A stretch of 64,000 bases of DNA from Patescibacteria group bacterium (GCA_038063515.1 JBBTUY010000001.1:10972-74971); one strand, 5' to 3'; positions 6,329 to 48,410 are shown, counted from the stretch's first letter. Translations and numbers: made by a program. Notes: generated by a model from the letters alone, not told the origin.

Positions 6329-6904
6329 ATGACAAACACAAAAATACAAATAGCCTTCAGAGATTTTAATGTAACATATTTTAAACCGGATAATAAAGAA
6401 ATTGTAATTTTTTCGTTAGGTAATTGTGAGATTGGAATACCCATTGTACGTATTCACTCTTCTTGCTTGTTTGGGGAAGCTTTTAATTCACAAGATTGTG
6501 ATTGCGCACAACAACTCAATGCTACTATTAAAAGAATTGTTCAAAATGGTGCAGGTATCATAGTTTATGTTTTTGAAGAAGGTAGAGGGATAGGGCTAGA
6601 AAATAAAATAAAAGCAATAGAAATTGAACGTACAGAAGAGGTAGACACAGTAGAGGCTTTTAGAAAATTAGGCTTTGAACCAGACCCGCGAGATTTGGAT
6701 ATTCCAGCTAAAATACTTTCAGATTTAAACACAAGTAAAACTATTGGATTATTTTCTGGAAATCCAAAAAAGAAACAATCATTAGAAAAGTTCGGATTTA
6801 AAATTGTTGAAGAATATGAAACTAGTGAACCTTTATTATCAGTAGTAGCAAAAAAGGAAAAAGAAACTAAACGTACAAAACTCGGATATAGTTACAAAAA
6901 ATAA
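6329..6904 (+). CDS. ribA: GTP cyclohydrolase II-like (RibA family)
   Basis: RIHSSCLFGEAF...CDCAQQL...EGRGIGLENKI closely matches the RibA zinc and catalytic motifs. Confidence 0.7.
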   Translation: MTNTKIQIAFRDFNVTYFKPDNKEIVIFSLGNCEIGIPIVRIHSSCLFGEAFNSQDCDCAQQLNATIKRIVQNGAGIIVYVFEEGRGIGLENKIKAIEIERTEEVDTVEAFRKLGFEPDPRDLDIPAKILSDLNTSKTIGLFSGNPKKKQSLEKFGFKIVEEYETSEPLLSVVAKKEKETKRTKLGYSYKK

Positions 6905-7235: not shown

Positions 7236-7256
7236 TGTCAAAGACCGTCTTTGACA
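7236..7256. repeat. Terminal hairpin TGTCAAAGAC-C-GTCTTTGACA
   Basis: Perfect 10-bp stem read directly; overlaps the transposase stop codon. Confidence 0.8.
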
Positions 7257-7873
7257 GTACCTTCCTTGCATAATTCTAGTGTTTCTTGCTCAAAATCTTT
7301 TTCGTCAAATGTGGACATTATGAGATCTTTAGATAGTATTGTTAGATTTCTTTTGTTTATGAAATCTATGTAACTACTCCATGGATATTCTCTGGGGTGT
7401 TGCGTCATTTTAGCTTTGACAGGATTCATATGCATATATGCTGATATCCACATTAACTGAGGATTATTTTGTATTAGTACAGCTTTGAATTTATCTTGAA
7501 AAACATGCCCAACTCTTTTGTATTTTTTGTTTATGTATTTAGAATAACTTGTACAGAGTTTTGAAATTAATTTTGAAATTGGAACATCTTTAGTTTGTTC
7601 TATGAGTAAATGAAAATGATTCGGCATCAAACAGAAAGCGTGGAGCTTAAAGTCACCCTTAACAGTTCCAGTAATTCTAATTCTTGAGTAGGGCATAGAA
7701 GTTAGCTTCTCTTTATTTAGTTCTTCTTCGGTAAATCCTAAGCATAGTCCGAGTCTAAAAAGAAAAGCTGTGTGATCTTGATTGTCAAAAAATATTTTTT
7801 CTTTGTTGTTACCACGATTGTAGATATGTAAAATATTGCCAGAGGCAAAATTTTTATAGTCTCTATTGTTCAT
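7238..7873 (-). CDS. tnpA: IS200-like / REP-associated tyrosine (Y1 HUH) transposase
   Basis: LHIYNRGNNKEKIFFDNQDHTAFL and CLMPNHFHLLIE (HuH) motifs of the Transposase_17 family. Confidence 0.75.
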   Translation of the reverse strand: MNNRDYKNFASGNILHIYNRGNNKEKIFFDNQDHTAFLFRLGLCLGFTEEELNKEKLTSMPYSRIRITGTVKGDFKLHAFCLMPNHFHLLIEQTKDVPISKLISKLCTSYSKYINKKYKRVGHVFQDKFKAVLIQNNPQLMWISAYMHMNPVKAKMTQHPREYPWSSYIDFINKRNLTILSKDLIMSTFDEKDFEQETLELCKEGTVKDGL

Positions 7874-7966: not shown

Positions 7967-8497
7967 ATGTTCTCTGATCCGGTAAAAAATTTAAAATTGT
8001 TTGGACTAAGAGAAGATAGTATTGTTGCAGACTTGGGAGCTGGGACAGGATTTTATTCTGTGGCTGCGGGGGGCATGGTTCCAAAAGGGAAAGTTTATGC
8101 TATTGAAATAGTAAAAGACTTTTTAACAACAATCAAAAACAAAGTAAAAGACGCACATTTAGACAATGTAGACATCATCTGGGGCAATGTAGAGGACAAA
8201 CACGGCACACATTTGGCTGACAGCATAGTGGACGCAGTTATTGCTTCTAATATTTTCTTCCAAGTAGAAGACAAAAATCAATTTATCGAAGAAATAAAAA
8301 GAATATTAAAACCTTCTGGGAAAATACTTATCATTGACTGGCTTCCCGAAGATTCAAAAGATGCTTTACCTATCAAATTCAAAGGCTCTATGTCTAAAGA
8401 AAGGGCACGGGAGATGTTTGAGAAAAAAGGTCTTTTGTTTGATCGTGACATAGACGCAGGTGTGCATCATTATGGTATGATATTAAAAAAGCAATGA
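7967..8497 (+). CDS. Class I SAM-dependent methyltransferase
   Basis: VADLGAGTGFYS glycine-rich SAM-binding motif. Confidence 0.6.
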   Translation: MFSDPVKNLKLFGLREDSIVADLGAGTGFYSVAAGGMVPKGKVYAIEIVKDFLTTIKNKVKDAHLDNVDIIWGNVEDKHGTHLADSIVDAVIASNIFFQVEDKNQFIEEIKRILKPSGKILIIDWLPEDSKDALPIKFKGSMSKERAREMFEKKGLLFDRDIDAGVHHYGMILKKQ

Positions 8498-9789
8498 AGG
8501 CAAGCTTCCAAATTATATTTATAGTTTTATTTATAGCATCTGCCATATTTGGTGTCTTAGTTTTTTCTGGAATTATAAAACTAGGTGGTGATGATGCTTC
8601 CTCGACTGGTGGTACGGTAGTGCTTTGGGGTACCATTCGAAGTGAAGTTATGGTCGGAGCCCTCGAAGGTTTTAATAACAATAATCAAAATTTTAATGTA
8701 AAGTATGTACAAAAGTCAGCAGAGACTTTCGACAACGACTTACTCGAAGCCCTCGCATCTGGCAAAGGTCCAGATATGTATTTCTTGCCTGACAACCTTG
8801 CGTATCACTATGCAAACAAAATAGGCATCATACCTTACACGAGCTATTCACTCACTTCCTTTAAGAACAACTTTGCCGGAGCAGGGGAAGTTTTCCTCAC
8901 CCCTACGGGGCTACTCGCCTTTCCTATGACCATAGACCCTCTTGTGATGTATTACAACAGGAGCACTTTTGACTCAAATGGTATTATTTATCCACCAACT
9001 ACTTGGGATGAGATCTCAAATGACATAGTTCCTGTTCTTACAAAAAAGAATGAATTAAATAAAATAACAAAAAGTGCAGTGGCACTCGGGCATTTCTCAA
9101 ACGTAAATCATTCAAAAGACATCCTAGCAACTCTTTTCATGCAGGCAAAGAATCCCATTACGACTTTAAATGGCGGAAGACTTCGATCTTCTTTGAGTGA
9201 TTTAAATCCTAAATACAATTTAGGTTCTGTGCTTAAGTTTTATACTGATTTTGCCGACCCATCTCATCCTACTTATTCTTGGAATAAATCTTTTTCAAAT
9301 TCTCTAAATACATTTAGCTCTGAAGACCTCGCTATTTATTTTGGTTTTGCATCTGAGCTGAAGTCTCTCGTAGATAGGAATCCAAATCAGAATTTCTCTG
9401 TAGCACCAGTTCCTCAGATCAAAGGCGAATCTGTTAAAGTCACGGGTGCGAGAGTCATGGGGCTTGCCATATCTTCATTTTCTAAGAATTTTAATACTGC
9501 ATTTACCGCAGCTAGTCTCATGGCAACAGGGGACTTTGCATCTAAGCTCTCTCTTGCTTTAAGTGTGCCCCCTGCAAGGAGAGATTTGCTTGCCATAAAG
9601 CCTGTGGACTCTTATTCACCAATATTTTACAATTCTGCATTATATGCGAGAAGCTACCTTGATCCTTCTTCAGATCAGACAGATGATATTTTCCGTACTA
9701 TGATTGACGGTGTGCTTTCTAACAACATGACCCCAAACGATGCCATATCAGACGCAAGTTCCAAATTAGATCTTTTACTAGCTAAGTAA
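8494..9789 (+). CDS. Membrane-anchored extracellular protein; possible solute-binding (SBP family 1-like)
   Basis: N-terminal TM helix, then TVVLWGTI... and a periplasmic-binding-like composition. Weak assignment. Confidence 0.35.
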   Translation: MKASFQIIFIVLFIASAIFGVLVFSGIIKLGGDDASSTGGTVVLWGTIRSEVMVGALEGFNNNNQNFNVKYVQKSAETFDNDLLEALASGKGPDMYFLPDNLAYHYANKIGIIPYTSYSLTSFKNNFAGAGEVFLTPTGLLAFPMTIDPLVMYYNRSTFDSNGIIYPPTTWDEISNDIVPVLTKKNELNKITKSAVALGHFSNVNHSKDILATLFMQAKNPITTLNGGRLRSSLSDLNPKYNLGSVLKFYTDFADPSHPTYSWNKSFSNSLNTFSSEDLAIYFGFASELKSLVDRNPNQNFSVAPVPQIKGESVKVTGARVMGLAISSFSKNFNTAFTAASLMATGDFASKLSLALSVPPARRDLLAIKPVDSYSPIFYNSALYARSYLDPSSDQTDDIFRTMIDGVLSNNMTPNDAISDASSKLDLLLAK

Positions 9790-9800
9790 TTTATGTTTAT

Positions 9801-10238
9801 ATGAAAAGCTTAACCAAAATTTTAATTTCTTCTTTAGTTTTTATAATTCTCTTGACCCCTGTCATATCTTTTGCCTTTTTGGATTTAAGACAAGGCTTAG
9901 TGACATGTGGTAGAGGTGTAGCTCCTGGTGTACCCGAAGCATACACCCACCCATGTGGATTTAACGACATGATGGATTTTATAAATAACCTTATTCATTT
10001 TGTATTATTTTTCTTAGCTTTACCTATCGCTGCTATAATGGTTGCATATGCAGGATTTTTACTTGTTACCGCAGGAGAAGAGAGTGGCCATGCACGGCAA
10101 AAAGCAAAGAACATATTTACTCATGCTGTTGTCGGCCTTGTCATAGCCATTGCTTCGTGGCTCATTATTCGCTCAGTACTGTCTATAGTAGGATACGATG
10201 GGGCATGGATAGGTTTACCTAAAACAAATGTATTTTAA
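9801..10238 (+). CDS. T4SS pilin-like protein (TrbC/VirB2-type), paralog 1
   Basis: Signal peptide plus two hydrophobic helices around an AGFLLVTAGEE...KAK motif. Confidence 0.55.
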   Translation: MKSLTKILISSLVFIILLTPVISFAFLDLRQGLVTCGRGVAPGVPEAYTHPCGFNDMMDFINNLIHFVLFFLALPIAAIMVAYAGFLLVTAGEESGHARQKAKNIFTHAVVGLVIAIASWLIIRSVLSIVGYDGAWIGLPKTNVF

Positions 10239-10275
10239 TTTTGCCAAAAATTCAATTTGGCGTTACAATATAAAT

Positions 10276-10668
10276 ATGAAATTTTTTATAAGTAACCTGG
10301 TTGTTTTTACTTTTTTAGCTTTTGTTTTATTACTACCAACCTTAACTTTATATGCAGACACAAACCCTGTTCCGCCTACGACTACCCCTACTCCTTCCGG
10401 TAAACTAGTAAATCCAATACCAAGTATCACTTCGATACCTGGCCTTATTAAGACTATATTAGAGGGTCTGCTTAAGATCGGCCTTCCGCTCATAGCACTC
10501 GCTATTATTTATTGTGGATTTCTCTTTGTCGTGGCTCAGGGTAGTGAAGAGAAGCTTACTAAAGCAAAGGATACTTTGCTGTATACGATCATAGGATCAG
10601 CGATACTTCTCGGTTCTTGGGCTATTGCCAAGTTAATAGAGACGACTGTCACAGGTCTTGGAGCATAA
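10276..10668 (+). CDS. T4SS pilin-like protein, paralog 2
   Basis: IYCGFLFVVAQGSEEKLTKAKDTLLYTIIGSAILLGSWAIAK module; ATG 10276 chosen after the upstream stop. Confidence 0.55.
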   Translation: MKFFISNLVVFTFLAFVLLLPTLTLYADTNPVPPTTTPTPSGKLVNPIPSITSIPGLIKTILEGLLKIGLPLIALAIIYCGFLFVVAQGSEEKLTKAKDTLLYTIIGSAILLGSWAIAKLIETTVTGLGA

Positions 10669-10672
10669 ATAT

Positions 10673-11227
10673 ATGCTAAATTTACTAAACACAATACAAG
10701 AAATTCTAAATTCTCTCATACCGTTATTTGTAACTATCGGCATAGTGTATTTCGTATTCGGTGTTGTGCAGTATTTTATAGCTGATGCAGAAGAAGCAAA
10801 AAAGAATGGACGAGATAGGATCATCTATGGAATTATAGGCCTAGCGGCTATTACAGGCCTCTGGGGGCTTGTAAAAATAGTGCAGGACACCTTTGGAGTC
10901 AGCAACTTGTACGATCCAAACGTATCTGTTTCTGGTGTGTGTCGCGTGGGCACAACTTTCGCGACTTTGGTTTATTATATTATTTGCATAATAAATAAAT
11001 CCGTCATACCTCTTTTATTTGCGGTATCCATTTTAGTATTTGTATACGGGACGGTAAACTTCTTCATCATAGGTGCAGGCGAAGAAGCAAAGAGGACTCA
11101 AGGCAAGCAGTTTATGATCTGGGGAGTTGTAGCTCTCACGGTGATGCTCTCAGTTTGGGGATTAGTTAAAATTTTTGGTAGCACTTTTAATATTAATACA
11201 AGCGTCATACCACAGACTAAAGAATAA
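10673..11227 (+). CDS. T4SS pilin-like protein with two tandem pilin modules
   Basis: Two consecutive modules (…ADAEEAKKNGRDRIIYG… and …IIGAGEEAKRTQGKQFMIWG…). Confidence 0.55.
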   Translation: MLNLLNTIQEILNSLIPLFVTIGIVYFVFGVVQYFIADAEEAKKNGRDRIIYGIIGLAAITGLWGLVKIVQDTFGVSNLYDPNVSVSGVCRVGTTFATLVYYIICIINKSVIPLLFAVSILVFVYGTVNFFIIGAGEEAKRTQGKQFMIWGVVALTVMLSVWGLVKIFGSTFNINTSVIPQTKE

Positions 11228-11229
11228 TT

Positions 11230-11682
11230 ATGCTTTGCACATTTGCTACTGACTCAAAAATACAAGACGTACTGAACTACATTACCTGCTTTGTGTCAAA
11301 ATCTATATTGCCTCTCATTTTTACAGTGGCTATAGTCCTCTTTGTTTGGGGTATAGTGCAGTTTTTCATTATAGGTTCAGGTGAAGAGGCAAAGAGGACT
11401 CAGGGCAAGCAGTTTATGATCTGGGGAATACTCGCTATGGCAGTGATCTTGTCTCTCTGGGGGCTCGTACGTATCCTAGGGAGCACTTTTGGCTTAAATA
11501 CAAGTATTTTACCAGGTACTCGGCCCTCGTCTTCTTCTAATTTTAATCCCGCAGGTACAGACCCAATAGACCCAGGGAATTTCCCTATTACCTTACCTGG
11601 GTCTGAGAACAGTGATAACGTGGATTCTCCCATACCTTGTGAGTTTAGTGCAGAAGGTTGCGGTGGTCAGGTTGAGAGTTAG
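11230..11682 (+). CDS. T4SS pilin-like protein, paralog with a Pro/Ser/Gly-rich C-terminal tail
   Basis: IIGSGEEAKRTQGKQFMIWG module nearly identical to the one in the upstream gene. Confidence 0.55.
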   Translation: MLCTFATDSKIQDVLNYITCFVSKSILPLIFTVAIVLFVWGIVQFFIIGSGEEAKRTQGKQFMIWGILAMAVILSLWGLVRILGSTFGLNTSILPGTRPSSSSNFNPAGTDPIDPGNFPITLPGSENSDNVDSPIPCEFSAEGCGGQVES

Positions 11683-11776
11683 CTTTTTATTTAGCGTGTA
11701 GTATAATATATAGGTATTATTTATTATTAAAATAGGTCGCTTATTATTATAAATTTATGTTTGTTAAAAATTAGTT

Positions 11777-12190
11777 ATGAAAAATAAATTAATGGTTTTA
11801 TCAGGTTTAGTTATGATGTCTGCTCCTGTCGTTGCTTTAGCACAGGTGCAAATACAGAGCGGTGGGGCATGTAGTGGTCTTATTGGTACTGGTACAACAC
11901 AAGGAGGAGTAAAGGAGATCATATGTCGTGTTGGAGATATATTAAGTACAATAGTCCCAGTATTGATGGTGCTTGCTATCATCTACTTCGTATGGGGAGT
12001 TATTAACTACGTTATCGCTAGTGATGAAGAAGCTAAAAAAGCAGGAAGAGATAGAATTATCTACGGAGTTATAGGTCTTGCTGTTATCGTCGGTGTATGG
12101 GGACTTGTAAAAATCGTTCAAGATACATTTGGTTTTGATAACACTAATACAAACCCTATAGTTCTACCAACTATCGATATCTATAACTAA
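11777..12190 (+). CDS. T4SS pilin-like protein, paralog
   Basis: Signal peptide ending in ALAQ, plus a VIASDEEAKKAGRDRIIYGVIGLAV module. Confidence 0.55.
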   Translation: MKNKLMVLSGLVMMSAPVVALAQVQIQSGGACSGLIGTGTTQGGVKEIICRVGDILSTIVPVLMVLAIIYFVWGVINYVIASDEEAKKAGRDRIIYGVIGLAVIVGVWGLVKIVQDTFGFDNTNTNPIVLPTIDIYN

Positions 12191-12192
12191 GC

Positions 12193-12516
12193 ATGATGAA
12201 TTTGTTTTCTACTAACATAGCCTATGCTGCGACGCCGGAGCTTGATAAGTTTATCAGGAACGTGGATCGACTTATTATAAATCCCATCATTACCTTACTT
12301 TTTGCTATTGCTGTCGTATATTTTCTTTACGGTGTGTTTCAGTTTTTGTGGGCTAGTGCAAGTGAAGAGAAAAAGACAAATGGCAAGTCGCACATGCTCT
12401 GGGGCATCATCGGGATCACGATCATGATGAGCGTCTGGGCTATCCTTGGTATCGTAATGCGTACCATAGGAGTCACAGGTATTAACCCACAGCAGGGAAC
12501 AGTGGAGCTAAGGTAG
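12193..12516 (+). CDS. T4SS pilin-like protein, paralog
   Basis: LWASASEEKKTNGKSHMLWGIIG module. Confidence 0.5.
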   Translation: MMNLFSTNIAYAATPELDKFIRNVDRLIINPIITLLFAIAVVYFLYGVFQFLWASASEEKKTNGKSHMLWGIIGITIMMSVWAILGIVMRTIGVTGINPQQGTVELR

Positions 12517-12540
12517 TAGAAATAAAATAAATAGAAATGT

Positions 12541-12575
12541 AAAAGAGCCGAATCATAAACGATTCGGCTCTTTTT
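12541..12575. terminator. Bidirectional rho-independent terminator AAAAGAGCCGAATC-ATAAAC-GATTCGGCTCTTTTT
   Basis: Perfect 10-bp stem flanked by A4 and T5, between convergent transcription units. Confidence 0.8.
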
Positions 12576-12644
12576 GTGCTAGCCAACAGCACGATTTTTC
12601 GGCTAAGACCCTTTGACGGGGGTCAGCCGTGTCATCTACAATCG

Positions 12645-13043
12645 TCACCAGCGATTGTAGATGACAACCTCCTGCCCTTTATCAGGGCGGAAGGTGTAAA
12701 ATCCCGCGGGTTCCTCGGGAGCATGATCGCTCCCGGGGCAGTCGTGAATCTCACGACCGCTGGGTGTGTCTATATAGATACACCCACCCTTCGGGTAGAT
12801 GGCTGGAGAAAGCTCTAGCCACTTCCGAAGGCCTTCCTTTGGAATCTTGAAACGCTTGGGGGTTTTAGCCCCGCTCCCACTGGTGGTGGTACCAGTGGAG
12901 GAATTTTTGGCTTCGACTTTTTGAGGGGCCTCAGCCAGTTGGGTTTTTTTGGTGCTACCCGCTTTCTTTATCAGAAAAGTAGTAACACCTAAGATGATCG
13001 CAGCAACAATGGCAATCAACAGAAGCCCGCTTATTTTTTTCAT
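12645..13043 (-). CDS. Small membrane-anchored protein; C-terminal part encoded by a GC-rich palindrome-dense segment
   Basis: Start codon shares one nucleotide with the upstream stop (TAATG). N-terminal TM anchor. The C-terminal 60 aa come from a region of about 58% GC. Confidence 0.4.
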   Translation of the reverse strand: MKKISGLLLIAIVAAIILGVTTFLIKKAGSTKKTQLAEAPQKVEAKNSSTGTTTSGSGAKTPKRFKIPKEGLRKWLELSPAIYPKGGCIYIDTPSGREIHDCPGSDHAPEEPAGFYTFRPDKGQEVVIYNRW

Positions 13044-15661: not shown

Positions 15662-15700
15662 ACCTATATAATAGCATATTTTAAATAAAAAGTCAAGTTG

Positions 15701-15782
15701 TGCTGGAGAAGGGACTCGAACCCTTAAGCCTTGCGGCACTAGTTCCTAAGACTAGCGCGTATACCAATTCCGCCACTCCAGC
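15701..15782 (-). tRNA. tRNA-Leu (anticodon TAG)
   Basis: Cloverleaf with a 7-bp acceptor stem, CTTAGGA anticodon loop, long variable arm, GGTTCGAGTCC T-arm. Confidence 0.8.
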
Positions 15783-15786
15783 AATG

Positions 15787-15859
15787 TGCGCCCTGAAGGG
15801 ATCGAACCTTCGACCTTATCCTTAAGAGGGATCTGCTCTACCAGCTGAGCTAAGGGCGC
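15787..15859 (-). tRNA. tRNA-Lys (anticodon CTT)
   Basis: GCGCCCT acceptor stem, GCTCAGCTGGTAGAGC D-arm, CTCTTAA anticodon loop, GGTTCGATCC T-arm. Confidence 0.8.
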
Positions 15860-15902
15860 ATTATTTTAAATTTTTTAACTTCTATTTTATAACATTCTTC
15901 TG

Positions 15903-16087
15903 TTGAATCCGCTACAGCTGAGCTAAGGGAGTATTTTATATTTTTAAAACCTACCTATATTATTATCTAATAAATTATTTTGTTGAACCCGCTACATCTA
16001 AACTAAGGGCGCATACGTATTTACATCTTATTTTAAACTATAATCTTACTAAAAATCTAACGACCTACCAAAACAACTAAGGGTGCA
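15903..16087 (-). repeat. Three degenerate copies of the 5' portion (acceptor plus D-arm) of tRNA-Lys at about 75-79 bp periodicity (15903-15934, 15983-16013, 16056-16087)
   Basis: Shared core CTAAGGG[C/A/T]G[C/T]AT and GCTACAGCTGAGCTAAGGG; similarity decays with distance from the intact tRNA-Lys. Confidence 0.5.
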
Positions 16088-16117
16088 TTTATAAAACAAA
16101 AAAATTTCAAAAAACGG

Positions 16118-16199
16118 TGCCCGGAGTGGGAGTCGAACCCACATCCCTTACGAGACACGATTTTAAGTCGTGCGCGTATACCAATTCCGCCATCCGGGC
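16118..16199 (-). tRNA. tRNA-Leu (anticodon TAA)
   Basis: GCCCGGA acceptor stem, CTTAAAA anticodon loop, long variable arm, GGGTTCGACTCCC T-arm. Confidence 0.8.
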
Positions 16200-16259
16200 A
16201 ATTTATTTATAACCTTCCTAATATATCAGAGAAATAAAGAAATGTTAAATAAAATGCTG

Positions 16260-16332
16260 AGGCCACGGTGGGATTTGCACCCACGCGTCGCGGTTTTGCA
16301 GACCGCTGTGTTAGCTACTTCACCACGTGGCC
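16260..16332 (-). tRNA. tRNA-Cys (anticodon GCA), non-canonical T-loop UGCAAAU
   Basis: 7-bp GGCCACG acceptor stem, 5-bp anticodon stem with CTGCAAA loop, 5-bp T-stem; 3-bp D-stem. Confidence 0.65.
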
Positions 16333-17040
16333 TTCTATTATCCTTTTCATTACTTTATCGATAACTTGCGGTCGTAATTTAAAGTAATTATTGAATATTC
16401 TAAATTTTCGCATAAAAAAGGAATTAATGCTAGTGCCTTTATACATCAGCTTAAATAACTCTAAAGAATCTTTTGTATTATATATTAATTGATAGGATCT
16501 TTTACTTACATATATTTTACCATTTTTAATCTCAGCAATTTCTAAAGAAGCCTGCATTTCTTGAAGAAATAATTTACTACCACTTGTAAATATTACACGT
16601 ACTCTTTTGATAATTAATTTTTGAGTTTTACCTTTAGTTTGTAGAAAACTAACACAACCATCACCATCAAAATATCCTCTGACAAAGTCACCTAAGTATT
16701 TTTTTGGAATTTTAGGAAAATTTATCGTTAAGGATTTATTTGGGTATAATCCTAATTTAAAAAGGTCGTTATATATTTTATGGCTGCCTATTCTTAATAT
16801 AAAACAAATTTTTCCTCCTATGAAATTTGATTTTTTCTGACCAATTTTATGCTCAGAATTTAGCCAGTTTTTAATTCTATATATAGAATCTTCATCTGTG
16901 CTTGTTATTTGTATGTATTTACCACGCATGTAAGGGGAATCATCTAAGCTTCCATCAGCGTAGATATAACCTAAAACATATCCCATAGTCGGTGACCATT
17001 TTTTAAAAAACTTTTCGTTAACTTTATATTTTAATCCCAC
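16315..17040 (-). CDS. LAGLIDADG homing endonuclease, double-motif, free-standing
   Basis: Two motifs, LGYIYADGSL and VRGYFDGDGCVSF, about 100 aa apart. The 3' end overlaps the 5' end of tRNA-Cys by about 18 nt. Confidence 0.75.
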   Translation of the reverse strand: MGLKYKVNEKFFKKWSPTMGYVLGYIYADGSLDDSPYMRGKYIQITSTDEDSIYRIKNWLNSEHKIGQKKSNFIGGKICFILRIGSHKIYNDLFKLGLYPNKSLTINFPKIPKKYLGDFVRGYFDGDGCVSFLQTKGKTQKLIIKRVRVIFTSGSKLFLQEMQASLEIAEIKNGKIYVSKRSYQLIYNTKDSLELFKLMYKGTSINSFFMRKFRIFNNYFKLRPQVIDKVMKRIIEGHVVK

Positions 17041-27250: not shown

Positions 27251-28651
27251 ATGACTGAGTTTGGAGATAATCTCGAACACATTATAGCAAATTATTGGCA
27301 CTACATTTTAGCTTTAATAGCTATATTTTTTCTTTGGTACTACGATTTGCTTCGTGGAGCTATAGAAGCAGCACTAGCCCTTGCCGGAGTTATTATACTT
27401 GGACGTATGGCTTGGAAGGTATGGGTGCATTATGTTCAGCAGGATTTTATCTCAGGTATCGATTATGTTTTACTTGAGATCATCCCTCCACGAGAAGTTT
27501 TAAGAAATCCTAAAGCAATGGAGCTTTTTTTTAGTAATGCACTCTATCACTGGAGTTTAAAAGGAGGAAAAGAGGAATACTGGCAGGGTGCAGTGTGGTT
27601 TTGGTTTTCTCTTGAGATCGCATCCATTGACGGACAAGTGCATTTTTATGTACGTACACCCACTCGTATACGAGGGCTCATAGAGACACAGATGTACGCT
27701 CAGTATCCTCAAGCACAAGTAAAGGAAGTGGAAGACTATACTATGGCTGTGGATAAAATAAGCCCTGATAGTAAATGGATGGGTTGGGGTTGTGAATTTA
27801 AATTAAAGAAAAATGAAGCATATCCTATTAAAACTTATGTGGATTTCGGTCTTGATAAGGATCCTAAAGAAGAGTATAAGGTTGACCCTATTTCACCTCT
27901 TATAGAGCTTTTTGGTTCACTTAAAAAGGGTGAGCAAATGTGGGTGCAGATAGTCGTAACGCCTTCTAAAAAAGCTTACAAAACTAAAGGGACATTGTTT
28001 GGATCTCATGACTGGGTACAAGAGGCGCAAGATGAAGTTTTAAGATTTCTTGCTCCATACACAAGCCATAAGGAGGTTAAGGAAATAGGTGATTATGGAA
28101 TAGGTAGGAGTCGTATTGAAACTCGTGTGCCGCCATTTTTAGATAGAGCAGTAAAAGCCATGGGTGCAAAGACTACAAAGCTTGGTTTCGACACCGGTAT
28201 ACGTGCATATTATGTAGCTCCTAAAGAAATATACGACATGAGTAGTAGGAGAAACATCCGTCTCATCTTCCGTCAGTATGATGCTCCTGATAGTAATGGA
28301 CTTATCCGTACAAATCCTACTCAGGCTGATGCGCTCGGTCGTTTCGGTGTTTTTTCTCTTTCCGCTGAGCAGGTCATGGTATTAGCAGACAGGATGCTCA
28401 ATGAGTACAGAGAAAGACAGTTTTTTCATCCACCACTTCGTCATCAAATTTTAAATAACCATAATATAAAATGGCCTTTTAATATTTTTGTACATCCATT
28501 TTTCTTACCATATCTTCATGGTAGTACTTTTGTTTTAAATACTGAAGAGCTTGCGACACTCTGGCATTTCCCTGGTCAGATACTCAAAGTTCCTACACTC
28601 GAACGTATCGAATCTAAAGAAGCTTCTCCTCCTACTAACTTACCGACTTAA
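27251..28651 (+). CDS. Large membrane-anchored hypothetical protein
   Basis: One or two N-terminal TM helices; no recognisable catalytic motif. Confidence 0.35.
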   Translation: MTEFGDNLEHIIANYWHYILALIAIFFLWYYDLLRGAIEAALALAGVIILGRMAWKVWVHYVQQDFISGIDYVLLEIIPPREVLRNPKAMELFFSNALYHWSLKGGKEEYWQGAVWFWFSLEIASIDGQVHFYVRTPTRIRGLIETQMYAQYPQAQVKEVEDYTMAVDKISPDSKWMGWGCEFKLKKNEAYPIKTYVDFGLDKDPKEEYKVDPISPLIELFGSLKKGEQMWVQIVVTPSKKAYKTKGTLFGSHDWVQEAQDEVLRFLAPYTSHKEVKEIGDYGIGRSRIETRVPPFLDRAVKAMGAKTTKLGFDTGIRAYYVAPKEIYDMSSRRNIRLIFRQYDAPDSNGLIRTNPTQADALGRFGVFSLSAEQVMVLADRMLNEYRERQFFHPPLRHQILNNHNIKWPFNIFVHPFFLPYLHGSTFVLNTEELATLWHFPGQILKVPTLERIESKEASPPTNLPT

Positions 28652-40402: not shown

Positions 40403-42094
40403 ATGAAAAGTGAAACTAAAAACTGCCAGAATTGTAAAAAAGATTTCGTAATAGAAACTGAGGATTTTGACTTTTATGAAAAGATAAAAGTGCCTCCACC
40501 GACGTGGTGCCCAGAGTGTAGGCAAGTACGTCGCTATGCTTGGAGAAATGAACGTACTCTGTACAGGAGAAACTGTGATCTCTGTAAGAAAAATATGGTG
40601 ACAATATATTCACCGAACAAACCATTTGTAGTGTATTGCAATGAATGCTGGTGGGGTGATGGCTGGGATCCAGCTTCGTATGCCAAAGATTTTGACTTTT
40701 CAAGGCCATTTTTCGAGCAATTTTCTGAGCTCCAGCACGAAGTCCCCCGTATGGCACTTTTAAATAAAAATAGTACTAATTCAGAGTATACTAACCATGC
40801 CGCTAATAATAAAAATTGTTATCTATCATTTACACTTATTGATGATGAAAATGTTATGTATAGTGCGTGGGTTGTAAAATCTCGTGATTGTGTAGATTGT
40901 AGTTTTATATATGAGAAAGGGGAGCGGCTTTATGAAGTAATTGATTCCCGTACTTGTTATCAGTGTCAGTACGGACTTTTTTTTAAAGACTGTTCGTCAG
41001 TGTATTACTCTTATGATTGCCATAGTTGCAATGAATGCTTTTTATCTTCAAATTTACGTAATAAAAGTTATGTTTTTAAAAATGTTCAATACTCGAGGGA
41101 AGAATATTTAGAAAAAATAAAAGAATATAATTTATCTTCTTTTGAAGTACGACAGAAATTAAATGAAGAATTTAAAAATCTATTGGAAAATATTGCTGTC
41201 CACAAGTATGTCGTCAATGAAAGAAACGTAAATTCTACAGGGTCCTTAATTTATGACTGTAAGGATGTAAATAAGGCATTTGAAGTTTATAAAGGAGAAA
41301 ATGGTAAATATATTTATGGTGCAATAAATATAAAAGACTCTATGGATTTGTACCACATAGATGGAGCTGAGTTGTGCTATGAGGTTCATGCTGGTATTAG
41401 AAATACTAATTCCCAGTTTATTACTCTCTGCTATGATAATACTTATATCATTTATAGTGATACCTGTCATAACAGTCAAAACCTTTTCGGCTGTGTTAGC
41501 GTCAAGAAAGGTGAATATGTGATTTTAAATAAGAAATACAGTAAAGAGGATTATCTTATTTTAAGAGAAAAGATTATTGAACATATGAAAAAGGGAGGGG
41601 AATACGGAGAATTTTTTCCTCCCTCCATTGCTCCTGTCACCTACAATGAGACTCAGGGGAATTTATATGAGCCTATGACCAAAGAGGAGGTCTTGGCTAA
41701 GGGATGGAACTGGGAAGAAAATGTACCAGGGACATTTGGTAAAGAAACTATTCCTCACGACCAAATACCAGACAAAATAGAAGATGTCCCCGATTCATAT
41801 TTGAAAGAGATTTTTATTTGTACCGAGTGCTCGAAGAATTACAATATTAATCAAAATGAACTTCTTTTTTATAAAAAAGAAAAAATCCCACTTCCTAGGA
41901 AATGCCCAAATTGTAGATACAAAAGGAGATTTGACTTAAGACCACTTCGCAAGTTGTGGCATCGTATTTGTATGTGCTCGCAAAAGCATAATAATCATGA
42001 AGGTAAATGTGAAGTAGAATTTGAGACCCCATATTCTCCGGATAGAGTTGAAAAAGTGTATTGCGAAAAATGCTACCAGCAAGAAGTCTACTAA
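40403..42094 (+). CDS. Cysteine-rich protein with N- and C-terminal zinc-ribbon modules and internal Cys repeats (hypothetical)
   Basis: About 40 Cys. N-terminal CQNCKKDFVIETEDFDFYEKIKVPPPTWCPECRQVRR and C-terminal CTECSKNYNINQNELLFYKKEKIPLPRKCPNCRYKRR are homologous CxxC...CPxCR ribbons. Confidence 0.5.
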   Translation: MKSETKNCQNCKKDFVIETEDFDFYEKIKVPPPTWCPECRQVRRYAWRNERTLYRRNCDLCKKNMVTIYSPNKPFVVYCNECWWGDGWDPASYAKDFDFSRPFFEQFSELQHEVPRMALLNKNSTNSEYTNHAANNKNCYLSFTLIDDENVMYSAWVVKSRDCVDCSFIYEKGERLYEVIDSRTCYQCQYGLFFKDCSSVYYSYDCHSCNECFLSSNLRNKSYVFKNVQYSREEYLEKIKEYNLSSFEVRQKLNEEFKNLLENIAVHKYVVNERNVNSTGSLIYDCKDVNKAFEVYKGENGKYIYGAINIKDSMDLYHIDGAELCYEVHAGIRNTNSQFITLCYDNTYIIYSDTCHNSQNLFGCVSVKKGEYVILNKKYSKEDYLILREKIIEHMKKGGEYGEFFPPSIAPVTYNETQGNLYEPMTKEEVLAKGWNWEENVPGTFGKETIPHDQIPDKIEDVPDSYLKEIFICTECSKNYNINQNELLFYKKEKIPLPRKCPNCRYKRRFDLRPLRKLWHRICMCSQKHNNHEGKCEVEFETPYSPDRVEKVYCEKCYQQEVY

Positions 42095-44831: not shown

Positions 44832-46916
44832 ATGGAATTTCCAGAAATACCTAAAAATAGAGATATAACCTATTTGGGTCTTACCACGTATAGAGATAAA
44901 AATACGCTCTTCGGCATAAAGCGTAAAGACAGGCGTCAGCATGTATACATTCTCGGAAAGTCCGGTACAGGTAAGTCTGTACTCATGTTTAATATGATTA
45001 TACAAAACATCCAGAATGGGGACGGTGTTTGTTTAGTTGACCCTCACGGAGAAAATGTTGAAGGAGTGCTTTCTTCTATTCCTCCACACAGAGTAAAGGA
45101 TGTAGTTTATTTTAACCCTGCAGATACGGAGCACCATATTGGTTTTAATGTTTTAGAATTAGTTGACCCTCAATACAAGCACCTAGTAGCTTCTGGGCTC
45201 ATGGGAATCTTTACAAAGATATGGGCAAATGCATGGTCTGCTCGTATGGAATACATTTTAAACAATACTATTCTTGCACTTCTTGATACTCCAGGTTCTA
45301 CAATGCTCGGCATTCCTCGAATGCTCGTAGACAAAGATTATCGTCAGAAAATAATTTCAAATTTAAAAGACCCTGTCATTAAAGCCTTCTGGGTGCATGA
45401 ATATGAAGCATGGCAAGATAAATTTAGAAATGAAGCAATAGCACCAATACAAAACAAAGTAGGGCAATTCCTCTCTACGTCTATCATAAGAAATGTTGTC
45501 GGGCAGTCAAAGAGCACTATAGACATTTTCAACATGATGAATGAGGGAAAGATTTTCCTTGTGAATGTTTCTAAGGGTCGCATAGGTGAGGACAACTCTG
45601 CGTTGCTTGGAGGTATGATCATTACCAAGATCCAGCTTGCAGCCATGGAGCGTGTGAGAATTCCTGAAGATTCTCGTCGTGACTTTTATTTATATGTCGA
45701 CGAATTTCAAAATTTCGTTACAGATGCTTTTGCTGGGATTTTGTCTGAGGCTCGAAAATACCGACTAAACCTTACAGTGGCTCACCAGTACACAGCTCAG
45801 CTCGTCTCAGACAAGAGTACGGCAGTGCGTGACGCAGTCTTCGGTAACGTAGGAACCATGATCATTTTTCGTGTCGGTTCTGACGACGCAGAATTCTTAG
45901 AAAAAGAATTTGATCCAGAGTTTACTCCACAGGATATTGTAAATCTTCCAAACTATAAAATTTATCTAAAGCTCATGATAGACGGCGTGACTTCTCGCCC
46001 ATTTTCTTCGAGGACGTTACCTCCTATGGTAAAGTCTGGAAATAAAGAAATAGAAGAGGCTGTTATAAAGTCTTCTCGCGAGCTTTATTGTAAATCAAAA
46101 GAAGAAATAGAAAGAGAAATAAATAATTGGAGTGGCATGTCTCTCGGTGGTGAAGGAGGCGAGTCGGTGAATCAGCCTACGGGTAAATTTGAAATTACAT
46201 GCTCTGCATGTAAGAAGCAGACCACTGTGCCATTTAAGCCTGAGGGAGGTAGGCCCGTGTATTGTAAGGAATGTATGGCAAAGATAAAATCAGGGGAGTT
46301 AAAAGTACAAAAAGGAAAAGACGATCAGATTAAATACGATGATTCAAAGTTTTACAAACCTCTTGCTGATCTTGGTATAGAATACAAGCCTAAGGATGAA
46401 GGCGTAAAATCTGTCATTAATTCTGCCATTAATAAGGAATTAAAAGAAGTAAAGGAGGTTCCTAAAGAAATGCAAAAAGAAAAGGTTGTAAAAAAAGAGG
46501 AAGAAAAACCTCCTTACGTGCAAAAACAAGAAGTTTCACCCCTTAAACAAGCCTTAAATAAAATTACAGAGATAATAAAAACAGAGCCTGCTCCTGTAGT
46601 GGAAGAAGTAAAGGAAACAATAAATAAAGAAGAACCTTCTCCGGAACTTTTAAAAGAGAAAATAAAAGTAATTGCAAAAAAGTCTACAATAGTAACCACC
46701 TCAAAAGATAAATCTGCAAGTAAAGAAGATATGAAAAAACTAAGAGACTTCTTGGCTTCTGCCCCTATGAAACAAACTGAAGAAAATACTAAAAAAGAAA
46801 TTCCTGAAATACAAAAAGAGCCAGAAGTAAAGCCAAGTGAAGAGGATGTTGTACCTCTTCCTAAAAAGCCAAAAGAAGTTCCAGAGGAAGTTTTACGAAA
46901 GATCTTAGAAGATTAA
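44832..46916 (+). CDS. Soluble VirD4/TraG-like (type IV coupling protein family) P-loop ATPase with C-terminal zinc ribbon and Lys/Glu-rich disordered tail
   Basis: Walker A ILGKSGTGKS, then CLVDPHGE; Walker B YLYVDEFQNF; ARKYRLNLTVAHQYTAQL (T4CP RKYG...Q..QL-like). CSACKK...RPVYCKECM ribbon. No TM helices. Confidence 0.55.
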   Translation: MEFPEIPKNRDITYLGLTTYRDKNTLFGIKRKDRRQHVYILGKSGTGKSVLMFNMIIQNIQNGDGVCLVDPHGENVEGVLSSIPPHRVKDVVYFNPADTEHHIGFNVLELVDPQYKHLVASGLMGIFTKIWANAWSARMEYILNNTILALLDTPGSTMLGIPRMLVDKDYRQKIISNLKDPVIKAFWVHEYEAWQDKFRNEAIAPIQNKVGQFLSTSIIRNVVGQSKSTIDIFNMMNEGKIFLVNVSKGRIGEDNSALLGGMIITKIQLAAMERVRIPEDSRRDFYLYVDEFQNFVTDAFAGILSEARKYRLNLTVAHQYTAQLVSDKSTAVRDAVFGNVGTMIIFRVGSDDAEFLEKEFDPEFTPQDIVNLPNYKIYLKLMIDGVTSRPFSSRTLPPMVKSGNKEIEEAVIKSSRELYCKSKEEIEREINNWSGMSLGGEGGESVNQPTGKFEITCSACKKQTTVPFKPEGGRPVYCKECMAKIKSGELKVQKGKDDQIKYDDSKFYKPLADLGIEYKPKDEGVKSVINSAINKELKEVKEVPKEMQKEKVVKKEEEKPPYVQKQEVSPLKQALNKITEIIKTEPAPVVEEVKETINKEEPSPELLKEKIKVIAKKSTIVTTSKDKSASKEDMKKLRDFLASAPMKQTEENTKKEIPEIQKEPEVKPSEEDVVPLPKKPKEVPEEVLRKILED

Positions 46917-46931
46917 TTTAATAATTTATAT

Positions 46932-48410
46932 ATGCCAAAGCCAAATAGAATACAAATAATAAAATACGGTCCACCACCACCAGAACTTCCTGTTTTCGGT
47001 AAGGTAAAACCTGAAGACGTATCTTTTATAGGCCGTACGAATTACGTGGCTGCACTTGAAGAAAAGAAATTCGTCTTTGGTATCAAAAGGGTAGATAGGA
47101 GAAGGCACCTATACATCATAGGAAAGTCGGGAGTGGGGAAGACTAAGCTTCTTGAGCTTTTTTTGCGTCAGGATATCACCTATGGACATGGACTTTGTCT
47201 CATAGACCCTCACGGAGACGTGATAGACGCAATGCTTGATTATATTCCTAAGGAACGCATTGATGACGTATGTATTATAGACCCATCTGATATTGATTTC
47301 CCTGCATCATTTAATCCTCTTTCAAACGTGGATCCTATGTTTAAGTTTCAGCTTACGCAAGGACTCATCGAAGTTTTCCAAAAGCAATTCGGAGCCAACT
47401 GGACTCCACGTCTTGAGCACGTTTTTCGTTTCACTTGCCTTGCACTTCTAGACTATCCTCATGCGACGATGCGTGGAATGATATCAATGCTTACAGATAG
47501 AAACTACAGACAGAAAGTTGTGGAATACATCACAGATGACATGGTGAAAAGATTCTTCGCTATTGAATTCGCTGATTGGTCTGAGAAGTTCGATACTGAC
47601 GCTATAATCCCGCTTGTAAACAAACTAGGACAATTTCTCTCTGACCCACTGCTACGTAATATTTTCGGTCAGAAACAAAACAAAATAGACATAAGCAAGC
47701 TCATGAATACTCAAAAGATAATTTTTATTAATTTATCTAAGGGTCGCCTCGGTGAGGAGAATTCTTCATTTCTCGGTTCTATGTTTTTAACAAAGATAAA
47801 ACAAGCAGGCATGGAGCGTGCAGGTATGCCAGAGAGTGCACGTAAAGACTTCTACATATATGTGGATGAGTTTCAGAATGTTGTGACGCAAACATTTGAA
47901 AATATTTTATCTGAGGCCCGTAAGTACGGACTCAATCTCACCATGGCTCACCAGTATGTGGGACAAATAATCACAAAAGTTCACCAAGCTGTACTTGGTA
48001 ACTGCGGTAGTATTATTACTTTTCGTATAGGTGGTGAAGATGCAGTGAAATTAAAACCAGAATTTTCCCCACTTTTTGATGTTAAAGATATGATCAATCT
48101 CGCTGTGACAGAATTTTATATAAAAATGACTATTGATGGTGAATCTTACGATCCATTTTCAGCTGAGACTTTACGAGTTTTACCTCCAACGCACGAGTCT
48201 TATAGAGAAGAAATAATTGCTGCATCTAGAGCAAAATATTCAATACCCAAAGATGATGCACAGAAATTAATTGCTGAAGAAGAAGCCACTATCATCAGAA
48301 GCGTCGAAGAAAAGGCTATGATCGAAGGTAAAGCAAAGAATAAAGACGGTATGGGTAATGAAACAACAGAAACTCCAAAAGTAAAAGAAGAAGTGCAGCC
48401 AATGATATAA
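46932..48410 (+). CDS. Soluble VirD4/TraG-like P-loop ATPase, paralog of the upstream gene
   Basis: IIGKSGVGKT / CLIDPHGD / YIYVDEFQNV / ARKYGLNLTMAHQYVGQI in the same order as in 44832-46916. Confidence 0.55.
   Translation: MPKPNRIQIIKYGPPPPELPVFGKVKPEDVSFIGRTNYVAALEEKKFVFGIKRVDRRRHLYIIGKSGVGKTKLLELFLRQDITYGHGLCLIDPHGDVIDAMLDYIPKERIDDVCIIDPSDIDFPASFNPLSNVDPMFKFQLTQGLIEVFQKQFGANWTPRLEHVFRFTCLALLDYPHATMRGMISMLTDRNYRQKVVEYITDDMVKRFFAIEFADWSEKFDTDAIIPLVNKLGQFLSDPLLRNIFGQKQNKIDISKLMNTQKIIFINLSKGRLGEENSSFLGSMFLTKIKQAGMERAGMPESARKDFYIYVDEFQNVVTQTFENILSEARKYGLNLTMAHQYVGQIITKVHQAVLGNCGSIITFRIGGEDAVKLKPEFSPLFDVKDMINLAVTEFYIKMTIDGESYDPFSAETLRVLPPTHESYREEIIAASRAKYSIPKDDAQKLIAEEEATIIRSVEEKAMIEGKAKNKDGMGNETTETPKVKEEVQPMI

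Follow-up and report, generated by a model that had tools for sequence, protein, structure and literature searches.

What kind of structure would call for seven versions of one small membrane hairpin encoded side by side in a bacterial chromosome? This question is raised by a tandem array of six genes (g1-g6) in a 64 kb stretch of DNA (hereafter, the window) from a metagenome-assembled genome of an ultra-small groundwater bacterium of the Paceibacteria (Patescibacteria) from Hainich. The six consecutive open reading frames (ORFs), located on the + strand between positions 9801 and 12516, carry seven two-helix modules with a conserved core; on this point, the coordinates, hydropathy and a module hidden Markov model (HMM) agree with the preliminary description of the locus. 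Our preferred answer, to which we assign a probability of about 0.6, is that the array encodes an invariant complement of five VirB2-like hairpin types which would jointly form a heteromeric pilus or conduit built by a type IV secretion system (T4SS) encoded elsewhere. The array consists of the following genes, where letters denote the hairpin types delineated below and scores refer to the Pfam T4SS_pilin family, PF18895.

9801-10238, + strand: g1, pilin-like protein of type A, 145 aa, with a signal peptide-like helix, a Cys-pair segment and a hairpin (30.1 bits)
10276-10668, + strand: g2, pilin-like protein of type B, 130 aa, with a signal peptide-like helix, a Thr/Pro-rich linker and a hairpin (31.3 bits)
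10673-11227, + strand: g3, two fused hairpin modules, type C followed by type D, 184 aa (49.9 bits, in two stretches)
11230-11682, + strand: g4, stand-alone module of type D, 150 aa, lacking a signal peptide and ending in an acidic tail rich in Pro, Ser and Gly (35.2 bits)
11777-12190, + strand: g5, pilin-like protein of type C, 137 aa, with a signal peptide-like helix and a Cys pair (39.8 bits)
12193-12516, + strand: g6, pilin-like protein of type E, 107 aa, with no signal peptide (37.6 bits)

The array is present at 99.9-100% nucleotide identity in four independent assemblies (three from ENA/NCBI and one from Logan, Hainich aquifer) and is therefore not an assembly artefact. Within the window, the module HMM matches exactly g1-g6 and no other ORF. 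By hydropathy, each module consists of a charged loop, xxEE..K..(K/R), with a strongly hydrophobic helix on either side, so that g3 has four helices, and alignment of the seven modules reveals a common ..EE..K..G / W core. Pairwise identities between modules are low, 16-42%, except for those between the first half of g3 and g5 (g3a/g5, 54%) and between the D half of g3 and g4 (g3b/g4, 62%). The fusion of two modules in g3, the Pro/Ser/Gly-rich tail of g4 and the Thr/Pro-rich linker of g2 are all present as initially described. By contrast, the assignment of a signal or anchor helix to every protein stands only in part: in g1, g2 and g5 the hairpin is preceded by a separate signal-peptide-like helix at the N-terminus, with SFA, LYA and ALA, respectively, as its last residues, whereas in g3, g4 and g6 a short amphipathic stretch is followed by the first hairpin helix, with no separate signal-like helix. 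An alternative start of g2, the ATG at 10228, receives no support from the alignment of orthologues. Cys pairs spaced by 14-17 residues occur in g5 (C32/C50), g1 (C36/C52), g4 (C3/C20) and the linker of g3 (C90/C105). The conserved pair of types A, C and D lies in the outward-facing segment directly before the first hairpin helix, which suggests, from the sequence, a disulfide-stapled exposed loop.

All six proteins score above the gathering threshold of PF18895 (30.1-49.9 bits against 26.6 bits; g3 in two stretches), and precomputed matches concur in all four assemblies, so that membership in the T4SS pilin family, as originally proposed, is established at the sequence level. The matches below threshold consistently point to families of conjugation pilin-like proteins, namely, NF045849, TIGR03745 and TraQ. 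Of these, NF045849 (Mbov_0395 pilin-like conjugal transfer protein) ranks first among the NCBIfam families for every protein except g4, for which it comes a close second; its scores, 18.1-35.7 bits, remain under the 40-bit cut-off. PF18895 is also the family of the pilin genes SEML1_0014-0019 in the T4SS cluster of the saccharibacterium Southlakia epibionticum, a point in favor of reading the array as T4SS pilins.

The composition of the array is fixed across species. Using g3 in exact look-ups and in a scan of species-representative genomes, we collected 34 non-redundant related loci. More than 500 homologues of g3 were detected, and the 120 listed are nearly all full-length, with 50-63% identity; the 28 among these for which a source is named come from Paceibacteria/Nomurabacteria, and several are named 'pilin' by NCBI. 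Given this and the identity of the four assemblies, g3 is not an assembly or frameshift artefact. In all 34 loci, mapping of ORFs and HMM matches gave the same gene order: Lactamase_B, GyrA, a methyltransferase, a solute-binding protein (SBP) of 427-440 aa and the pilin array. Clustering of 220 modules yielded five orthogroups in a fixed order, A (g1), B (g2), the fused C-D (g3), C (g5) and E (g6), and 20 of the 34 loci contain exactly this five-gene array. Among the others, one is interrupted by a contig end, four share with the window an additional stand-alone D gene (g4) after the C-D fusion, six have an additional C gene preceding the fusion, and three more distant loci encompass only single-module genes, 5 to 8 of them. 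Thus, although changes in copy number among relatives do occur, they are confined to types C and D, with 5 to 8 genes per array, and the five types themselves are constant. Orthogroup 1 (g1) is first and orthogroup 2 (g2) second in every array; orthogroup 5 is that of g5; and orthogroup 4 (g6; mean identity 59%), with a conserved N-terminal motif of the MDLFSTKIAYA type, is last in all complete arrays except for one (L039), where one extra gene follows it. The g3 protein of the window differs from most of its orthologues in that it lacks both the signal peptide and the C-terminal tail; the tail is carried by g4.

Mean identity between orthologues is 52-59%, compared to 16-37% between paralogues of different types, with 54-62% for the duplicated pairs; for the flanking genes, the identities are 87% (GyrA), 75% (Lactamase_B), 62% (SBP) and 63% (methyltransferase). 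The fixed order of the five orthogroups and the greater closeness of orthologues than of paralogue types argue for a fixed multi-subunit structure, most likely a T4SS pilus or conduit. Judging by these comparisons, the array consists of five anciently diverged PF18895 types, A to E, with C and D each represented twice in the window, once in the g3 fusion, and the fused C-D double hairpin is the norm in this clade. The duplication that gave rise to g4 is old as well: identity between g4 and g3b (58-62%) is about equal to that between g4 and its counterparts in the four other species, and a recent duplication of g3b was rejected for this reason. Conservation along the proteins is uneven, with column identities of 0.6-0.9 in the pre-helix, both helices and the loop, and of 0-0.2 in the mature N-termini and C-tails; in these alignments, the hairpin cores are conserved and the predicted outward-facing termini are hypervariable. 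The constant position of the array behind GyrA, the methyltransferase and the SBP, the fixed order of five types, the hairpin fusions, the control element upstream of g5 (see below) and this contrast between cores and termini are the new observations of the present analysis.

The predicted topology places the termini outside and the K/R-rich loop inside the cell. The AlphaFold2 model of g3 (predicted local distance difference test score, pLDDT, 72.5) contains helices 2-36, 40-74, 96-133 and 138-171, that is, two hairpins, joined by a linker that would face outward and spans roughly 20-37 residues depending on the chosen start of helix 3. The model of g5 (pLDDT 74.9, with block means of 83-88 across most of the hairpin) consists of a signal helix and a hairpin (H45-80 and H84-117). 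The same orientation of the two modules in the C-D fusion is, by alignment and AlphaFold2, compatible with side-by-side parallel packing. A PDB sequence-profile search with 88 homologues of g3 returned only a chance match to a designed protein (E=1), and structure searches were unable to separate a pilin from any membrane hairpin.

The junctions between the array genes are tight, mostly, 1-60 nt or a slight overlap, apart from a single gap before g5, and the array is closed by a terminator.

11683-11776, + strand: intergenic gap of 94 nt before g5, the only sizeable gap in the array
12541-12574, both strands: bidirectional intrinsic terminator with perfect 14-nt arms (12541-12554 and 12561-12574) and flanking A4 and T4

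In 31 related loci, the g5 orthologue is likewise preceded by a gap, of 55-197 nt, which contains a conserved TTTGCT-17/18-TATAAT pair; in the window, the TATAAT -10 box is at 11702-11707. The alignment further reveals, downstream of TATAAT, the motif ATATTATTAG-TTTATTATTA-AGGTCGC-N-ATTATTAG, which in the window reads ATTATT-ATTATTA-AGGTCGC-ATTATTA (11716-11749). This leader pattern occurs once in the 64 kb, against 0.01 occurrences expected; the exact pattern was found in 11 of the 34 related loci, in one copy each and at the same position, and a looser GGTCG/AGTCG anchor in 25 of 30 related loci having the gap. Taken together, the promoter-like pair and the leader are found at this junction in about 26 of 31 related loci. 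An Rfam search with the leader at E<=1 gave no matches, and the leader does not fold stably (z=+0.47), so that we take it for a DNA or sequence motif and not for a structured RNA element. The gap is probably an internal promoter combined with an operator or leader for g5-g6, a conserved element that would make these two genes a separately controlled unit. As for the terminator, the perfect bidirectional hairpin noted earlier is fully borne out, with folding energies of -21.3 kcal/mol (z -6.6) on one strand and -21.8 kcal/mol (z -7.6) on the other; it faces a convergent gene on the - strand (12645-13043). A second perfect inverted repeat (12630-12666; 15-nt arms, 7-nt loop, -23.5 kcal/mol, z -5.0, no T-run) overlaps the stop codon of that gene.

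Arrays of VirB2-like pilins have already been described in Patescibacteria, and the array in the window is a further example rather than a new kind of system. Small, signal peptide-containing VirB2-related proteins encoded in arrays were reported in Saccharibacteria in 2018, and a 'Sec-secreted array' is described for TM7x (bioRxiv 10.1101/258137). In S. epibionticum ML1, the pilin subunits are essential and are encoded inside the T4SS cluster (PMC10633639); the six-gene pilin array of this bacterium, SEML1_0014-0019, is discussed in PMC12857230, and of its six genes, at least five have PF18895 matches and at least three have an essential call by transposon sequencing (PMC10633639). Both arrays consist of six tandem, divergent, small two-helix PF18895 proteins encoded in the chromosome of a monoderm patescibacterium, with no relaxase context. 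They differ in that the SEML1 array lies inside the T4SS cluster near virB4 and virB6, whereas in the window no such genes were found about 10 kb upstream and 50 kb downstream of the array, where the scan covered 46 of the ORFs of at least 120 aa with Pfam and ten of these also with NCBIfam. Furthermore, unlike the SEML1 array, the array described here includes a covalent double module, has an SBP gene upstream and contains three members without a signal peptide.

A survey of such genes (Quinonero-Coronel et al. 2025, PMC12102498) identified VirB2-like genes in 1,948 VirB4-containing assemblies of Patescibacteria, near virB4 in 1,135 of these, and 441 arrays of 2-11 genes in 383 assemblies, with a mean within-array identity of 25% and a maximum of 54%. 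The reported counts imply that pilin genes are located away from virB4 in about 40% of the assemblies. Under the definition used in that survey (at least two PF18895/PF04956 genes in tandem or separated by one non-pilin gene), g1-g6 form an array of six contiguous genes, and the identities within it, apart from the two more similar pairs given above, are as low as those surveyed. The surveyed arrays are mostly from Microgenomatia and Saccharimonadia, whereas the present one is from Paceibacteria, and positional orthology, module fusion, the SBP neighbour or a promoter and leader like that of g5 are not described in the available portions of PMC12102498 and the TM7x account.

Among better characterized families, TrbC/VirB2/TraA (PF04956), the pilins of the T-pilus and the F-pilus, are likewise small hairpins with both termini outside and a loop that faces the cytoplasm or the lumen. 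The putative signal peptides of types A, B and C look cleavable, and g2, the array member closest to TrbC/VirB2, has a short TVTGLGA C-terminus reminiscent of the TLTGG end of VirB2. Unlike in the canonical systems, the PF04956 scores are below threshold, profile alignment is at most 22% probable, no adjacent virB1, virB3 or virB4 was found, and the host is monoderm; moreover, those systems have one major pilin, whereas this array encodes five distinct subunit types, among which g5 is a candidate major subunit. Mbov_0395 of the mycoplasma integrative and conjugative elements (ICEs), the namesake of NF045849, is also a small protein with two transmembrane (TM) segments from a monoderm system of MPF-FATA-type conjugation, but it is a single gene within an ICE, in contrast to a chromosomal array whose NF045849 scores are below the cut-off. 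In archaea, the pilins CedA1 and TedC of the Ced/Ted import systems are reportedly VirB2-like hairpins, and these machines are said to be non-conjugative, VirB4-dependent and found in cells without an outer membrane. A 16-module family member lies on an archaeal-looking contig (see below).

Several observations weigh against the assembly of the array products into a T4SS pilus. As stated in the preliminary description, no T4SS core gene is adjacent: among the scanned ORFs of the window there are no members of the VirB4, VirB6 and VirB8 families, and none is a virB3, virB4 or virB6 gene of the same system beside the array. Three of the six proteins (g3, g4 and g6) have no signal peptide, and fused hairpins, two in this locus and up to 16 elsewhere, fit poorly with a machinery that extracts pilins one by one. 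Membership in TrbC/VirB2 proper was not supported, given that the best PF04956 match, that of g2 (26.8 bits, E=6e-6), is under the 27.9-bit cut-off, g1 scores 17.2 bits and g3, g4, g5 and g6 have no match to this family. With hhalign, neither the modules nor any orthogroup gave a significant match to eight annotated plasmid VirB2/TrbC proteins, the highest probability being 22%. Finally, no pilus of this type has yet been reported on a patescibacterium in the literature reviewed (PMC12857230). Homology to canonical VirB2 is, on the sequence evidence, plausible but weak.

The signal peptides missing from half of the proteins and the existence, in the family, of fused chains of 2-16 modules would also fit a hetero-oligomeric bundle or ring of hairpins that stays in the membrane and forms no filament, be it a T4SS translocon or another envelope machine, possibly one that includes the SBP. 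Fused c-ring subunits of rotary ATPases offer a parallel for such chains; the SBP gene is immediately upstream of the array in all 34 related loci; and structure searches, as mentioned above, do not tell a pilin from a membrane hairpin. However, the adjacency of the SBP might reflect nothing but inherited gene order because the entire region from the Mur ligase gene to clpB is syntenic in relatives (GyrA, 87%); furthermore, no SBP is listed in the available supplement rows for the T4SS/pilin cluster of S. epibionticum, no ABC (ATP-binding cassette) permease or ATPase gene was found nearby among the scanned ORFs, and types A and B give a weak but consistent TrbC/VirB2 signal. Altogether, a purely membrane-resident assembly is a serious possibility, but one we consider doubtful. 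Much less probable, indeed very unlikely, is a mere resemblance to the pilin profile in hydrophobic composition, with the genes encoding small membrane proteins of an unrelated kind, such as holin-like, immunity or stress proteins. Composition readily causes spurious matches of short TM hairpins, and weak side matches to Yip1 and holin families (E 0.002-0.09) were indeed obtained; but six proteins with seven modules all exceed the curated threshold of one family and align in a non-hydrophobic EE..K..G motif, as many as 33,415 cluster representatives match the module profile, and the sub-threshold matches fall into NF045849, TIGR03745 and TraQ.

Another interpretation, put forward in the preliminary description and also floated in PMC12102498, which suggests that VirB2-like arrays serve adaptation to different hosts, is that of a surface- or antigenic-variation cassette in which the paralogues are interchangeable versions of one pilin that match or evade hosts. 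There is precedent in Rickettsiales and Bartonella, host-dependent bacteria in which divergent virB2-like genes likewise lie side by side and are believed to have a part in antigenic variation or host range (as cited in PMC12102498). The high divergence of the paralogues (16-62%), the hypervariability of the outward-facing N- and C-segments between species and the varying number of C and D copies could all be accommodated by such variation. Nevertheless, in contrast to Rickettsiales and Bartonella, the paralogues here are fixed orthologous types across species: each has a positional orthologue in the related loci, in the same order, and is far closer to it than to paralogues of other types. 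The array is, moreover, invariant (99.9-100% identity) in four independent population samples, long DNA repeats suitable for recombination are lacking (the longest direct repeat is 149 nt, with 72% identity), and all genes are intact and tightly coupled, with no silent copies elsewhere in the window detected by the module HMM. Positional orthology together with population invariance disfavors this interpretation, and we regard it as improbable. The companion suggestion that the array acts in host-cell contact rather than conjugation does match the current view in the literature, as represented by PMC10633639, PMC12102498 and PMC12857230.

Under the favored reading of a heteromeric T4SS pilus or conduit, the proteins would enter the cytoplasmic membrane such that both termini are exposed on its outer face and the conserved EE..K/R loop on its inner face; types A, B and C would do so after cleavage by signal peptidase, and g3, g4 and g6 as uncleaved hairpins. 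A monoderm-type T4SS of Patescibacteria (VirB4, VirB6, PrgI and TrsD, encoded elsewhere) would then build from them a single heteromeric structure, resembling a pilus or a conduit, that crosses the wall and touches the host cell. In this structure, the conserved helices and loop would make up the packed core and the lumen, with the hypervariable N-segments and C-tails forming the exposed surface, and g5 and g6 would be driven by their own conserved promoter and leader.

Covalently linked hairpins are not limited to g3. The profile built from the seven modules matched 33,415 cluster representatives at E<=1e-3 among 1.84 billion, and many of these matches are multi-module chains, with 3-16 modules elsewhere in the family. 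Examples include a protein with six modules (P0251, L049:1777-3435) inside a five-gene pilin array, one with five hairpin modules in a single polypeptide (P0273), one with eleven (P0282, L051:950-4393) and one with sixteen (P0267, L050:10001-15328). The contig encoding the last of these is probably archaeal because it also encodes ribosomal protein L39e and Cas4. In the papers searched, there is no mention of fused multi-module chains. A more specific and more tentative proposal, which we would call unlikely in its full detail, is that each of the five hairpin types has its own place in a hetero-oligomeric tube or ring of invariant composition, with the fusions (2 modules here, 3-16 elsewhere, including the apparent archaeon) repeatedly hard-wiring neighbouring subunits in evolution; that this structure derives from a T4SS, spans the wall and serves as a conduit for uptake from the host; and that g5-g6 are separately regulated via the ATTATTA/AGGTCGC leader. 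If correct, the architecture of such a tube or ring would differ from that of all homopolymeric conjugative pili known. Uptake from the host through a pilus conduit has been the subject of speculation in a 2025 FEMS review, and PMC12857230 treats a pilus of this type on Patescibacteria as a possibility.

Two genes located 32 kb away were initially put forward as candidate partner ATPases of the array.

44832-46916 and 46932-48410, + strand: two adjacent VirD4/TraD-like P-loop ATPases with Pfam domains of type IV coupling proteins (T4CPs) above threshold

The VirD4-like nature of both proteins was confirmed: all three Pfam T4CP domains are above the cut-off in each (TrwB_AAD_bind, 40.8 and 27.6 bits; T4SS-DNA_transf, 30.4 and 26.1 bits; TraG-D_C, 26.1 and 26.2 bits), and the Walker A motif is present. 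In contrast, every NCBIfam equivalog scores far below its cut-off, no TM helix is predicted in either protein, and the genes sit between dnaK and dnaJ, not beside a T4SS or a relaxase. In canonical T4SSs, it is VirB4, and not the coupling protein, that pilus biogenesis requires. According to PMC12102498, 5,713 T4CP homologues are present in 2,918 genomes of Patescibacteria, about two per genome on average, with only 148 of them near virB4, and the homologue in S. epibionticum is non-essential. Given these data, the soluble nature of the proteins, their position between dnaK and dnaJ and the low NCBIfam scores, we found no evidence of a partnership with the array, and the case for it is weak. 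The first ATPase also carries a CxxC-x17-CxxC treble-clef zinc finger, and a 563-aa protein encoded just upstream of dnaK (40403-42094) shows a weak match to the model of this zinc finger.

The array lies in an ordinary chromosomal region with housekeeping gene content, including genes for a Mur ligase, S1, GyrA, IF-2, ClpB, TypA, AlaRS, RpoA, GrpE-DnaK, DnaJ, CysRS, DnaB, Pif1 and AspRS as well as five tRNAs, which were the sole matches in an Rfam scan of the whole window. Its immediate upstream neighbour is the SBP gene.

8494-9789, + strand: membrane-anchored family-1 SBP, 431 aa (SBP_bac_8 and SBP_bac_1 above the Pfam threshold)

This protein has one N-terminal TM helix, and its gene ends 11 nt before g1. 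The closest solved relatives are sugar-type SBPs, a homologue search retrieved close orthologues only, and no ABC permease or ATPase genes were found near the SBP gene and the array among the scanned ORFs. As a conserved immediate neighbour, the SBP may be functionally tied to the array.

Further upstream, between gyrA and the methyltransferase gene, lies an IS200/Y1-transposase-like gene (7238-7873, - strand) with a sub-threshold match to a REP-associated tyrosine transposase. Homologues occupy the identical position in four related species (L012, L016, L035 and L038), which suggests that the element is domesticated or site-specific and did not insert at random. A gene for GTP cyclohydrolase II (6329-6904) lies in the same interval in this genome only and is missing from that position in all 34 related loci. 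Downstream of the array, a free-standing LAGLIDADG homing-endonuclease-like ORF (16315-17040, - strand), whose first codons overlap tRNA-Cys, adjoins a cluster of four tRNAs (15700-16332). Finally, a 466-aa protein (27251-28651) with a hydrophobic N-terminal part containing predicted TM segments has no Pfam or NCBIfam matches.

A substantial part of the diversity of uncultured bacteria consists of Patescibacteria, which rely on host cells, and the T4SS with its pilin array is among the few systems shown to be essential for this lifestyle, in one saccharibacterium only. The locus analyzed here provides constraints for modelling: five types in a fixed order, two of them covalently linked in the same orientation, conserved cores with variable exposed termini, and one conserved control element for part of the operon. 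They open the idea of a heteromeric structure to tests and speak against the interpretation of such arrays, proposed in the literature, as serving antigenic variation.

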